64,000 bases of DNA, taken from the NCBI RefSeq assembly GCF_045037415.1, contig NZ_CP173438.1. One strand, given 5' to 3'. Below the pieces are notes generated by a model, which saw nothing but the letters and a program-made list of their open reading frames with translations, was not told the origin of the DNA and did not search any database. The DNA comes from Escherichia coli. GTDB lineage: Bacteria > Pseudomonadota > Gammaproteobacteria > Enterobacterales > Enterobacteriaceae. Every line of letters starts with the position of its first letter. Positions within the stretch are counted from its first letter, which is position 1. A program made the position numbers and the translations under genes. This document shows positions 1,735-26,505 of the stretch, in pieces.

Positions 1735-2184
1735 TCAGGCTTTTACCTGCTGGTAACGGCTGACTTTAAACAGTCGGCGGCAATAATCGAGGAAGTAGCC
1801 ATAAACCGCCCCCATCAACATCGAAACAACGATGTTTGAACTGACTGCCGCCATAATCTGATGCCAGTCTGCGCCCACCACTAACAAGATCGCCACATAC
1901 ACCGGTGACTGGAACGTCACATAAGCCAGGATATCCGCCAGATTTTTTATCCAGCCTGACGGGCTAACTTTGCGTGCCGCGCGCATAAACAGATCGCGGT
2001 ACATACCGTATGGCCATGCAATTAAGATGTTCACCGGAATCGCTACCAATCTGGAATAAAAAGACTGTTCGAAGCTCATTCCGGAGAGGAAAACTTCAAT
2101 ACACATGTTCACGACAGAACAGTAAACAACCATCGCGAACGTATCTGCAACTGCATGACGCAAGCGTGACTGCGGTGAGAACAT
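1735..2184 (-). CDS. alaE: AlaE L-alanine exporter
   Basis: 149-aa hydrophobic [38 protein letters not shown]...; recognised as AlaE (YgaW). Confidence 0.9.
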
Positions 2185-2851
2185 GCTAATGCTCCTTAAT
2201 AAAAGCGTAATGGGATGTTAATGGAGATGAAAGCAGTGGATCTCATTGCCATCTGCATTTTTGCATAGCGTATATCGCTGGCTATGACTAATCAATTAGT
2301 GAAAAATTTTCATTTAATCTGTTTTTGTAGATAAAATATTCCGTAACGGCGCGTTTTTTGTACATTGTGGATTTTTACATGCCGATATGATTTATTTTTA
2401 ATTAAATCAATTGGATATGTGCTTGCCTTTATTTTCACTCATGAAGGTTTGGGGGTGAGGTAACGCTATAAGCGTAGAGAATTCGGTGTATGTAGTGACC
2501 GGGTCATTTTCAGCATTTTTTATGACAGATAATGTACATTGACAGCAGAAAGCACCAGTGATAGATGTTTTCTTTTATTCGGTTGAATTGCATTTTTATT
2601 CACTTTGGTTTTGTCAGGCTTGCGGAATTAGCGAGCAGAGAGAGCCGCTCTGTTCACCAATAACCGAAATTACTCATCAAAATGGCTAATATATAATCTT
2701 GAAATTATTCTGAGAGTTTCAGAAAATAACAGCTGAAATAATCTCGTGCAGGACTGTAAATAGATTAAATTTTGTGGAAATATAATAAGTGATCGCTTAC
2801 ACTACGCGACGAAATACTTTTTTGTTTTGGCGTTAAAAGGTTTTCTTTATT

Positions 2852-3256
2852 ATGTCCGTAATGTTACAAAGTTTAAATAACATTCGCACCCTCCGTGCGA
2901 TGGCTCGCGAATTCTCCATTGACGTTCTTGAAGAAATGCTCGAAAAATTCAGGGTTGTCACTAAAGAAAGACGTGAAGAAGAAGAACAACAGCAGCGTGA
3001 ACTGGCAGAGCGCCAGGAAAAAATTAGCACCTGGCTGGAGCTGATGAAAGCTGACGGAATTAACCCGGAAGAGTTATTGGGTAATAGCTCTGCTGCGGCA
3101 CCACGCGCTGGTAAAAAACGCCAGCCGCGTCCGGCGAAATATAAATTCATCGATGTTAACGGTGAAACTAAAACCTGGACCGGTCAGGGCCGTACACCGA
3201 AGCCAATCGCTCAGGCGCTGGCAGAAGGTAAATCTCTCGACGATTTCCTGATCTAA
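2852..3256 (+). CDS. stpA: StpA, H-NS paralogue nucleoid-associated protein and RNA chaperone
   Basis: 134-aa [36 protein letters not shown]...; recognised as StpA. Preceded by a long AT-rich intergenic region. Confidence 0.95.
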
Positions 3257-3302
3257 TTACTGAGGCCGGATGTCGCTGCTATGGCGCGTCCGGCGTCGCT
3301 GC

Positions 3303-3827
3303 TCAAGCTCGTTGGTTCCACGGCATCTTATCTAACAACCTTGCCATTCCACAAAAACCACTAATTCCTGCAAGCAGTAACCCAGCACCAACAAAGCCGC
3401 TTAATAAGAAGAAAACGCTATTTACGGTATAACCCAGTACAACGCCGATTAATATTAAACCACCCGCGGCGATTTGCACCTGGCGCATTAACGGTAAGGG
3501 TTGGGATTTATTTACCGCTACTGGCAATCCTGCTTTTTTCCAGCCATCAATCCCATCTTCGAGTAAAAAGATTTCTGCGGGGGCGGCAATCGCTGCTAAT
3601 TTATCAGCGTTATTACTGGTGCGTTTACCTGCCTGGCAGTGGAATATAATTTGCTCGCGACGTAATTTAGGCGGAAGACCTGACTGTTCCAGTACGGATA
3701 ATGGAGCCAGATCTGCTTCAGGAATATGTTCACGAAGATATTCATCAGCATCACGAATATCGATTAACTTTGCGCCGCGTGCGATTAATTCTTGTGCATC
3801 ATGCGGCGAAATGGTTGTCAAAGCCAT
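3303..3827 (-). CDS. ygaP: YgaP, membrane-anchored rhodanese (thiosulfate sulfurtransferase)
   Basis: 174-aa [33 protein letters not shown]... with the active-site context FHCQAGKRT and a hydrophobic C-terminus. Confidence 0.9.
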
Positions 3828-3836
3828 AGTGACTCC

Positions 3837-4136
3837 TTACGGACAATAGACATTTTTCAGGGTGGCGATAATGGCATTTACCGCCTCATTTTTAATGGAA
3901 TATAGAATGCGTTGGGCATCCCGTTGGCAGTCGATAAGCCCTTCGCCCCGCATACGAGCGAGATGCTGTGATGTCGCAGAGGCACTCAGTCCGGTAATGC
4001 GCGTCAGCTCTCCCGCGCTGGTGCCGGGGGAACCGCTAAGCATACACAGAATCAGCAATCGTTTAGGGTGGCTCATTGATTTCAATAAGGCCGCTGCCTG
4101 TTCGGCACTGGCCTGTAATTGTGCGAGTTCAGTCAT
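3837..4136 (-). CDS. ygaV: YgaV, ArsR/SmtB-family transcriptional regulator
   Basis: 99-aa ORF with a helix-turn-helix region (LTRITGLSASATSQHLARMRGEGLI); lies immediately upstream of ygaP in the same orientation. Confidence 0.9.
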   Translation of the reverse strand: MTELAQLQASAEQAAALLKSMSHPKRLLILCMLSGSPGTSAGELTRITGLSASATSQHLARMRGEGLIDCQRDAQRILYSIKNEAVNAIIATLKNVYCP

Positions 4137-11383: not shown

Positions 11384-12560
<1,177 letters not shown>

Positions 12561-12879
12561 ATATTAAGTGTGCTTATACTCTTTTTCGAACTGGTGGCAT
12601 TTGTTTAAATGCTATTTAAACTGCTTTTTCAGAGTTCAACTTACTGAGTTCCGTGTCGACTAATGTGAGTAAGATCAATCGCATCCAACCTATGTTACTT
12701 GATGGCATCGATAACAATATTAATGAACATACAGATTCCGGGAAGGCTGGCTATGGGGGCAAATTATTCTCTTTCTGGAAACGGGTAAATAACAGTGACC
12801 ATTTGTCGAGAAGCTGATACTGAGCTGAGGGATACTGTATATGTCTGGACTGTAATTGGATGAATTCTATTCAGGGCGG

Positions 12880-12904
12880 GTCAGGACCAATAAAAAAGCC
12901 CGCA
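12880..12904 (-). terminator. Rho-independent terminator downstream of ssrA
   Basis: On the minus strand GCCCGC-UGAU-GCGGGC is followed by UUUUUUA; about 140 nt past the mature tmRNA 3' end. Confidence 0.55.
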
Positions 12905-13044
12905 TCAGCGGGCTTTAATGTCATAGGGAGTCGCGACTCCGTTGCGTATCCTTTTTTGTCTCCTCACCGTCTGGTCGGTGTCCTGCTGAGACTTATAACT
13001 TCCTGTTTTTGTTGGTGTAGTCCTTACACCGTCCAATCATTATT

Positions 13045-13407
13045 TGGTGGAGCTGGCGGGAGTTGAACCCGCGTCCGAAATTCCTACATCCTCGGTACTA
13101 CATGCTTAGTCAGTCTTTACATTCGCTTGCCAGCTGCGGACGGACACGCCACTAACAAACTAGCCTGATTAAGTTTTAACGCTTCAACCCCAGGCAGGGC
13201 TTCCACGCGATCTCTTTTGGGTTTGACCTCTCTTGATCCCCGTCCTAAGAGCGGAGGCTAGGGAGAGAGGGCTCTAAGCAGGTTATTAAGCTGCTAAAGC
13301 GTAGTTTTCGTCGTTTGCGACTATTTTTTGCGGCTTTTTACGAGGCCAACCGCCCCTCGGCATGCACCTTGGGTTTCGCAAATCCCGTCGAATCCAGAAT
13401 CAGCCCC
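13045..13407 (-). ncRNA. ssrA: tmRNA (SsrA, 10Sa RNA), 363 nt
   Basis: Minus strand reads GGGGCUGAUUCUGGAUUCGACGGG ... CUCCACCA with the tRNA-like acceptor/T-arm; internal tag reading frame GCAAACGACGAAAACTACGCTTTAGCAGCTTAA (ANDENYALAA-stop) lies near 13283-13315. Confidence 0.97.
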
Positions 13408-25278: not shown

Positions 25279-26505
25279 TTATCTCACCAGTTTTTCGGCA
25301 CGCTGGTGTTTGGCCTGATACATATTGTGATCGGCAAGCTCTTGTAAATTTTCCGCAGAGGCGTGCTCAATGGTCATCGCGTAACCAATGCTTAATGTCA
25401 TGGTAGTTTGATGGCCATTATGAAGATCAAACGGGAGATTAAAAATTTGTGTCAGTGCTGAGCATATCTGCTGCACTTCAGATTCCGACTGTACATCATA
25501 GAGCACCATAGCGAATTCATCGCCGCCCAGGCGGTATGCTTTATGTCGCAGCCCGCCAAATTCAGCTAACCGTTTTGCTATTTCAATCAAGACTCTATCG
25601 CCCGTCGCATGACCCCAGGTATCATTGATATATTTGAAATTATCGCCATCAAGAAATAGTAACGCCGACGTTTTTCGGGCATCGGAATTGTTCATCAACG
25701 TGTTGATGCCGCTACGAAACGCTGCGCGGTTAGCCAGCCCGGTTAATGGGTCATGTAGCGCGGTACGTAGAAGCTGCGCATTTTTGGCCTGTAAACGAAG
25801 CTGCCACTCTTCCATTTCATCCAGCAGACTGTTGAAGTCGAGAGCGAAGCGGTGAAACTCAGCGATACGTTCTTCCGAAACTCGTCGGGAAAAATTGCGG
25901 TTAGAACGCACATCATGTACGACATCGGTGATATTTTTCAGCGCTTCCACCAGGCCATTGTGCAAATGGCGGGTGAGGGTAATTGCGATGCCTGATGCCA
26001 GCAGAATACAACCGGTCAGGACAGCGAGCGAAAACCAGATAAAATGGCTGATTGAACTGTCGCGAGCAGTTAAGCGTACTTCGCCAATGGTTTCACTATT
26101 GTGACGAATCGGCTGAATGATGGGGGCAGGGAAGAGCCAGTGGCTTATGAAATTGCTGAAAGTATCGCCTGGTTCCTTATGGGTGTAATGCCAGGATGCC
26201 AGAATATTTTGCTGCTTATCACGCACTTCTGCAGTTGAAAATTGGCCTTGCTGGCCCAGCGCTGCCAGTGTTTCAGTTGCTGCAGGGCCATCGGCAAAAA
26301 CGACAGCTGCTTCCAGACTGTAAGTCATTGTTGCTGCTGTCAGTGCCAGGTTTTTTTGCGCGTATTGTTTCAGGGTTAGCACTGACGTCACGGAAAGCAG
26401 CAGCCAGATCAGCGTCATAGTGATAAATATGCTGGTCATGCTGATGTTGCGTAATGCTCTTTTAAACGTGGGGCGCTTATGAAGAGAATTATCGTTATCC
26501 ATCAT
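25279..26505 (-). CDS. dgcN: YfiN/DgcN, membrane diguanylate cyclase (GGDEF)
   Basis: 408-aa ORF with N-terminal transmembrane/periplasmic region and a C-terminal GGDEF domain (RLGGDEF motif). Confidence 0.9.

Follow-up and report, generated by a model that had tools for sequence, protein, structure and literature searches.

The genes alaE and stpA of Escherichia coli are transcribed away from each other across a long AT-rich stretch, raising the question of what such a spacer does and whether it conceals a further gene. We examined it within a stretch of 64,000 nucleotides of E. coli DNA (the window, whose coordinates are used unless K-12 positions are given), in which the ORF map gives the following arrangement.

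1735–2184, minus strand: alaE coding sequence, L-alanine exporter, 149 aa
2185–2851: alaE–stpA spacer, 667 bp, with no other gene annotated between the two
2852–3256, plus strand: stpA coding sequence, H-NS paralogue, 134 aa

Both genes were identified from the ORF list and from RefSeq annotation of K-12 and of a strain identical to the window over an 851-bp query (2100–2950). Their ATG codons lie at 2184 (minus) and 2852 (plus), and RefSeq places no feature inside the spacer in either strain, which bears out the 667-bp intergenic region described in the original prediction. The query is 100% identical to strain NR1441 and ~96.6% identical to K-12-type strains. The K-12 counterpart of the spacer measures 668 bp (NC_000913.3, 2798496–2799163) and is 96–97% identical, differing by 28 substitutions and one 1-bp indel.

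The locus is already known from the literature, where it serves as a model for Lrp DNA bridging and StpA control. Very probably the spacer is what this implies, the shared regulatory region of two divergent core genes with no further gene inside it. We favour this ordinary reading because a shared control region bound by Lrp and H-NS has been published here, and because no hidden RNA or small-protein gene was found.

The spacer is long, AT-rich and dense in A/T tracts

The spacer contains 34.6% GC, whereas the window averages 50.8% (sd 3.9% among stretches of 667 bp). Just 0.08% of such stretches in the 64 kb have a GC content as low, and the lowest stretch of this length (2218–2884, 33.9%) overlaps the spacer. 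Its 23 A/T tracts of at least four bases correspond to 34.5 per kb, which is 3.3 times the 10.3 per kb of the window and ties the window maximum. This is also about twice the number expected from the composition of the spacer itself (10.7 ± 2.7, 2000 shuffles). The strings TTTTTAATTAAATCAATTGG and AATATAATAAGTGATCGC, which had been singled out as examples when the region was called visibly AT-rich, lie at 2395–2414 and 2779–2796.

The spacer had also been ranked among the longest non-coding stretches, and correctly so: with the rRNA operon, the tmRNA gene (13045–13407) and the small genes ygaV and yqaE left out of the count, only 12362–13044 (683 bp) is of similar length. This second long spacer is likewise AT-rich (~39% GC) and lies between two features.

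11384–12361, minus strand: 325-aa ORF adjoining the 12362–13044 spacer, next to gabP
13045–13407, minus strand: tmRNA gene ssrA, adjoining smpB

From its position next to gabP, the 325-aa ORF looks like csiD/glaH. In K-12, ssrA is followed by prophage CP4-57, which appears to be missing after ssrA in this strain.

Each gene has a single mapped start within the spacer

Transcripts of K-12 mapped by SMRT-Cappable-seq (Yan et al. 2018, PMC6131387) include an alaE transcript running from 2799086 to 2799651 and a monocistronic stpA transcript running from 2798537 to 2798047. Exact sequence mapping places the two starts at window position 2262 (minus) and at G2811 (plus). Each flanking gene therefore has one outward-pointing start inside the spacer, where divergent promoters had been expected, and 549 bp separate the two. 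The same tables hold no further start or end in K-12 2798400–2799299, but the method depletes RNAs of <1 kb, so that the absence of extra starts weighs only lightly against a small RNA and would not exclude one by itself. The Term-seq tables of Adams et al. 2021 (PMC7815308) contain no 3′ end in the same interval; in the sorted list, the stpA-internal end at 2798243 is followed by an entry at 2800533. Around the two starts, the spacer is made up of the following elements.

2185–2262, minus strand: alaE 5′ UTR, 78 nt, from the published K-12 start 2799086; Shine-Dalgarno sequence AAGGAG at 2192–2197
2263–2295, minus strand: alaE core promoter; −35 TTGATT (2290–2295), −10 region GATATACGCT (2267–2276)
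2297–2345: proximal conserved block upstream of alaE; AAATGAAAAT at 2306–2315 (invariant core) and a Lrp-consensus-like site at 2329–2343
2353–2419: distal conserved blocks upstream of alaE; CAAAAAAC at ~2353–2360, AAAAATCC at ~2369–2376 and TAACnnATTGATTT at 2404–2419
2421–2769: fast-evolving AT-rich spacer, variable in sequence across genera and in length, AT-rich in composition
2775–2810, plus strand: stpA core promoter; −35 TGGAAA (2775–2780), 17-bp spacer, −10 TACACT (2798–2803)
2811–2851, plus strand: stpA 5′ UTR, 41 nt, from the published K-12 start 2798537; Shine-Dalgarno-like AAAGG at 2836–2840

On the stpA side, TACACT ends eight bases upstream of the mapped start. Across 21 aligned taxa, three positions never vary (G2777, T2798 and A2799), and conservation reaches at least 90% at T2775, G2776 and T2803; judged by sequence, TGGAAA-17-TACACT are probably the hexamers used. 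The leader downstream contains the conserved sequence GTTAAAAGGTTTT. A perfect TATAAT at 2781–2786 was considered as the stpA −10 element and rejected. It sits between TGGAAA and TACACT, so that the conserved hexamers and the published start at 2811 argue against it, and its conservation stops at Escherichia, Salmonella and Citrobacter and does not extend to Enterobacter or Klebsiella.

On the alaE side, the position of the promoter hexamers agrees with the published start site. Across 26 genera or species, the columns TTG (2293–2295), ATA (2271–2273) and CTA (2266–2268) are invariant in the promoter, as are AAAT.AA.A (2307–2315) further upstream and the Shine-Dalgarno sequence, and no indels fall between the invariant blocks. 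For the −10 element there are two candidates, TACGCT (17-bp spacer) and TATACG (−12 to −7). The length of the leader is 61–81 nt in 25 of 26 taxa. In Citrobacter amalonaticus S646 (locus L011, ~2350–2480), a GC-rich insertion of ~130 bp (…GGCCCCTGAGGGGCGAAGCCCAGGGATGGAGCGGG…) extends the alaE leader to 207 nt; it resembles a mobile element or small repeat.

The hexamers of both promoters are weak matches to the consensus (3–5 of 6), as expected of activator-dependent promoters. A generic promoter scan of the spacer returned 3 matches where 3.2 were expected, none of them real, and missed the alaE and stpA promoters. Two pairs of Shimada best-match hexamers were also set aside. TTTACA-17-TTTAAT (2374–2402, plus) has no start site in the published K-12 tables; GTGATA-17-TCTAAT (2410–2438, minus), a match in K-12 only, has no start site and is altered in this strain. 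At the far end of alaE, an inverted repeat (GACGCGACTGGC…GCCAGTCGCG, 1700–1730) separates the convergent genes alaE and ygaC. It is probably a terminator acting in both directions, since the 3′ end reported for alaE falls at 1712, within it.

Conserved blocks upstream of alaE are candidate Lrp sites

For comparison with other species, we retrieved 80 Enterobacteriaceae loci by an AlaE scan of one genome per species. In 58 of these, stpA is divergent and adjacent to alaE, and the spacer between them measures 475–789 bp and contains 31–43% GC. Alignment resolves three conservation zones, which in window coordinates are an alaE-proximal zone (2185 to ~2420), a stpA-proximal zone (2775–2851) and the middle (2421–2769). 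Across ~26 genera or species, promoter-proximal constraint covers ~160 bp upstream of the alaE start and ~80 bp upstream of stpA.

The strongly conserved ~160 bp upstream of the alaE start fits the expectation for an array of Lrp sites. Within the proximal block (2297–2345), which coincides with the strongest predicted curvature, the site at 2329–2343 matches the Lrp SELEX consensus YAGHAWATTWTDCTR at 11 of 15 positions in E. coli and at 12 of 15 in the cross-genus consensus. We infer that this block is a Lrp site, which is supported by the published occupancy of the region by Lrp. The distal blocks (2353–2419) consist of near-invariant alignment columns, and these extend to six aligned taxa without an adjacent stpA. 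Since the upstream blocks are kept where stpA is not the neighbour, they belong to the control of alaE.

This conservation acts at the level of DNA. For the alaE leader and upstream region, RNAalifold on 26 taxa gave a consensus of −2.4 kcal/mol, with five pairs at the Shine-Dalgarno sequence and start codon and no covariation, and the conserved part lies mostly upstream of the transcription start. An alaE leader riboswitch was rejected, as no structure was found and folding z-scores on the minus strand are ~0. The five-pair hairpin itself (2180–2196, minus) pairs the Shine-Dalgarno bases GGAGC with codons 2–3 of alaE (GUUCU) and is predicted in 26 of 26 taxa. It could sequester the Shine-Dalgarno sequence or simply reflect coding constraint.

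Published binding of Lrp and H-NS to the spacer

Work by Kroner in 2019 is said to have identified stpA–alaE as a Lrp double-peak locus of K-12. Ziegler & Freddolino 2023 (PMC10127797) present the locus as an example of the Lrp ChIP-seq double peak. They observed two Lrp peaks in minimal medium, of which one was kept with leucine/isoleucine/valine, alongside strong activation of alaE; this activation was leucine-dependent. Lrp-dependent expression at the locus is documented by a PalaE-lacZ reporter and by qRT-PCR. The second peak lies in ygaP, >1 kb from the Lrp-occupied region, and its removal reduced Lrp-mediated activation of stpA more than 5-fold. Purified Lrp bridged a stpA–alaE fragment in AFM, but not with leucine, and primer mapping places this fragment at 1955–4054 of the window.

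Other reports agree on both genes. Positive regulation of alaE by Lrp with L-alanine or L-leucine is attributed to Ihara 2017 as cited in PMC6801825, and transcription of stpA is Lrp-dependent in minimal medium and silenced by H-NS (PMC4668568). Genomic SELEX (PMC3946193) located binding sites for the RpoD holoenzyme and for H-NS in the stpA<>alaE spacer in vitro. Published binding of Lrp, H-NS and RNA polymerase thus upholds the earlier proposal of a regulatory region bound by nucleoid proteins, and contradicts the lack of protein occupancy that would have told against that proposal.

The K-12 locus of Ziegler & Freddolino is the same as that in the window, in a different strain. Base-level Lrp sites at stpA–alaE are not given in PMC10127797, and the cross-genus footprint suggests where they lie. 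The conserved A/T-rich blocks at 2297–2419 would most likely form the array of Lrp sites, a placement consistent with the published distance of >1 kb to the partner site in ygaP.

Motif counts in the spacer are weakly raised and do not prove specific sites. Allowing up to 3 mismatches, the Lrp SELEX consensus has 3 matches in the 667 bp against ~0.9 expected from its density in the window, and H-NS-motif matches number 5 against ~2.2 expected; neither excess is significant. No high-affinity H-NS motif stands out in the spacer, and for Lrp and H-NS alike a consensus scan says little in AT-rich DNA. Elsewhere in the window, the sole perfect match to the Lrp SELEX consensus (CAGAATATTTTGCTG, 26200–26214) lies inside a 408-aa ORF (25279–26505, minus) that by sequence looks like a diguanylate cyclase; this match is intragenic and possibly due to chance. 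The interior of ygaP contains a Lrp-consensus-like match at 3642–3656 (3 mismatches) and two H-NS-motif-like matches at 3760–3790 (1 mismatch each). These fall in the same ORF in which Ziegler & Freddolino place the second Lrp peak that stpA needs.

The original prediction also suggested a curved region, for which support is moderate only. We used a dinucleotide wedge model with Bolshoy/Trifonov parameters in approximate form. With these parameters, mean curvature of the spacer falls in the top 0.65% of 667-bp windows, and local peaks are predicted at 2305–2364 (99th percentile of the window), 2665–2694 and 2755–2784. The first lies on the conserved blocks upstream of alaE and the last just upstream of the stpA −35 element, so that each promoter has a peak upstream of it. 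No 10–11-bp phasing of A-tracts or of AA/TT dinucleotides was detected over the whole spacer. Under this model, curvature that is local and not region-wide is plausible.

The middle of the spacer may be constrained in composition rather than sequence

The middle (2421–2769) is the least conserved of the three zones. It is 94.0% identical to K-12, against 97–99% for the flanks, and aligns across genera with low identity and many gaps. Its length falls to ~160–190 bp in Enterobacter, Trabulsiella and some Citrobacter. Over 60 sequences (58 other Enterobacteriaceae loci, K-12 and the window), the middle averages 38% GC against 51% for the loci, a difference that may be the ordinary AT bias of intergenic DNA and that counts to this extent against our main reading.

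Insertion is also tolerated here. In E. coli A1.S1.18 (L083:887–1645), the spacer contains an IS1 element ~170 bp upstream of the stpA ATG. The element is flanked by a 9-bp target duplication, AAAATGGCT, at window 2678–2686, the remainder of the 851-bp query is identical, and the insertion splits the stpA promoter from the conserved blocks on the alaE side. A different kind of exception is GCGTAGAGAATTCGG (2472–2486), a short stretch of the otherwise fast-evolving middle that 6 of 7 Escherichia lineages share without change and that falls in alignment gaps in most other genera. Neither a promoter nor an ORF or structure accounts for it.

Variable length, low conservation and a tolerated IS1 could mean that only the promoter-proximal ~235 bp and ~80 bp are functional. 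The ~350-bp middle would then be neutral filler, AT-rich through mutation bias, and any binding of nucleoid proteins to it would have no consequence. We consider this partial rival to the main reading rather unlikely. All 60 sequences compared retain AT-richness and a total spacer length of no less than 475 bp, and A/T tracts exceed the expectation from composition. Furthermore, in vitro binding of H-NS to the spacer is documented, as is its silencing of stpA, and Lrp affects stpA over long distances. These observations favour the reading of the spacer as a shared control region, in which H-NS and StpA would use the AT-rich, A-tract-rich middle of ~350 bp as a binding platform whose composition, and not its sequence, is under constraint.

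No hidden RNA or small-protein gene is evident

The original prediction left room in the spacer for an unannotated small RNA or micro-ORF. We found no support for either: the spacer gave no Rfam match, terminator, published 3′ end or extra start, and neither a conserved RNA structure nor an ORF that is conserved and has a ribosome-binding site. That the published maps have missed an expressed element specific to Escherichia, either a transcript from 2365–2490 (plus) or a near-leaderless uORF at 2196–2258, is improbable. If true, the uORF would couple translation of alaE to amino-acid supply.

Among the 41 ORFs of at least 8 codons in the spacer, none pairs a ribosome-binding site with conservation. 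A 25-aa ATG ORF (2288–2365, minus) and a 43-aa ORF (2558–2689, plus) were rejected for want of a ribosome-binding site or of conservation, as were the rest. The most plausible translated micro-ORF is the 20-codon uORF of the alaE leader (2196–2258, minus), with a possible coupling to translation of alaE. Its AUG lies at +5 of the alaE mRNA, making it the only ORF inside a mapped transcript, and its stop codon overlaps the alaE Shine-Dalgarno sequence, 11 nt before the alaE ATG. The frame keeps its full length, uninterrupted, in E. coli, K-12, Escherichia sp. MOD1 and E. albertii. The uORF has no Shine-Dalgarno sequence of its own, however, and its translation in E. albertii shares only 9 of 20 residues with that in E. 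coli. In the cryptic Escherichia clades it is truncated after 5 codons, and nearly all other genera lack it, although the length of the leader is conserved. The RefSeq annotation of K-12, which includes validated small proteins, lists none in the spacer. Translation of this or any other micro-ORF in the spacer is accordingly very doubtful.

A small or structured RNA is a still fainter prospect. The best candidate lies on the plus strand at 2365–2490, where three hairpins are predicted at −35.2 kcal/mol (z = −3.5, with 0 of 200 shuffles as stable); the segment 2375–2474 is the sole outlier among 62 sliding windows (z −3.95). The sigma-70-like pair TTTACA-17-TTTAAT at 2374–2402 is found on the same strand, but a transcript starting from these hexamers would begin within the first hairpin. 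The structured RNA was rejected because the fold is not conserved in close relatives. Of the 47 pairs, 4 are lost in K-12 and only 30–39 are kept in other Escherichia lineages, where most changes disrupt the pairing; the consensus energy from RNAalifold is only −6.8 kcal/mol. No Rfam family matches the spacer at the gathering threshold (only noise at E ≤ 10), no terminator-like site was found in it, and the Term-seq and start-site tables add no end or start to go with the candidate.

Finally, acquired DNA to which H-NS binds typically has low GC, and IS1 can insert in the spacer, but a remnant of horizontally acquired or mobile DNA is effectively refuted by synteny across Enterobacteriaceae: the 851-bp query matches 5419 of 5426 complete E. 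coli genomes, each time as a single chromosomal copy, repeats in the spacer are short matches at chance level only, and there is no gene remnant with a conserved ORF.

Discussion

We read the alaE–stpA spacer as a control region shared by two divergent core genes. In this arrangement, alaE would be transcribed leftward from 2262 and stpA rightward from 2811. With L-alanine or L-leucine in abundance, the Lrp array would activate the weak promoter of alaE. Higher-order oligomers of Lrp would bridge the array to the second site inside ygaP, and the bridged region may in turn activate stpA at a distance in minimal medium. H-NS and StpA, bound to the AT-rich middle platform, would silence stpA.

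Lrp-controlled promoters such as ilvIH, dadAX and oppA carry arrays of degenerate A/T-rich sites. Control of dadAX and oppA by Lrp is described in PMC10127797. The alaE side of the spacer resembles these promoters in its phased degenerate A/T-rich blocks upstream of a weak promoter and in its modulation by amino acids. Unlike them, it uses one Lrp-occupied region for two divergent genes, and stpA is served from several hundred bp upstream with an intragenic partner in ygaP.

The control regions of hns, proU and bgl exemplify H-NS-silenced promoters in AT-rich or curved DNA. A general statement on such regions is found in PMC3946193. The spacer shares with them low GC, A-tracts, predicted local curvature near the promoters, binding of H-NS and repression of stpA. 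It differs from H-NS-silenced acquired DNA in being part of the ancestral core genome, with no outstanding H-NS motif.

The divergent csgD–csgB region of E. coli spans ~750 bp and is controlled by many regulators, and csgD has a long 5′ UTR that is the target of many sRNAs. The csgD–csgB region is listed with an HNS mark in PMC3946193. Like the alaE–stpA spacer, it is an unusually long AT-rich divergent region that integrates nucleoid-associated proteins. In contrast to csgD, the UTRs of alaE and stpA are short (78 and 41 nt), and no control element at the RNA level was detected in them.

The discovery value of these results is small. What they add is comparative: a base-level footprint over ~26 genera or species marks the constrained parts of the spacer, and the constrained blocks offer defined sites at which to test by mutagenesis how one long spacer is shared by Lrp and H-NS.
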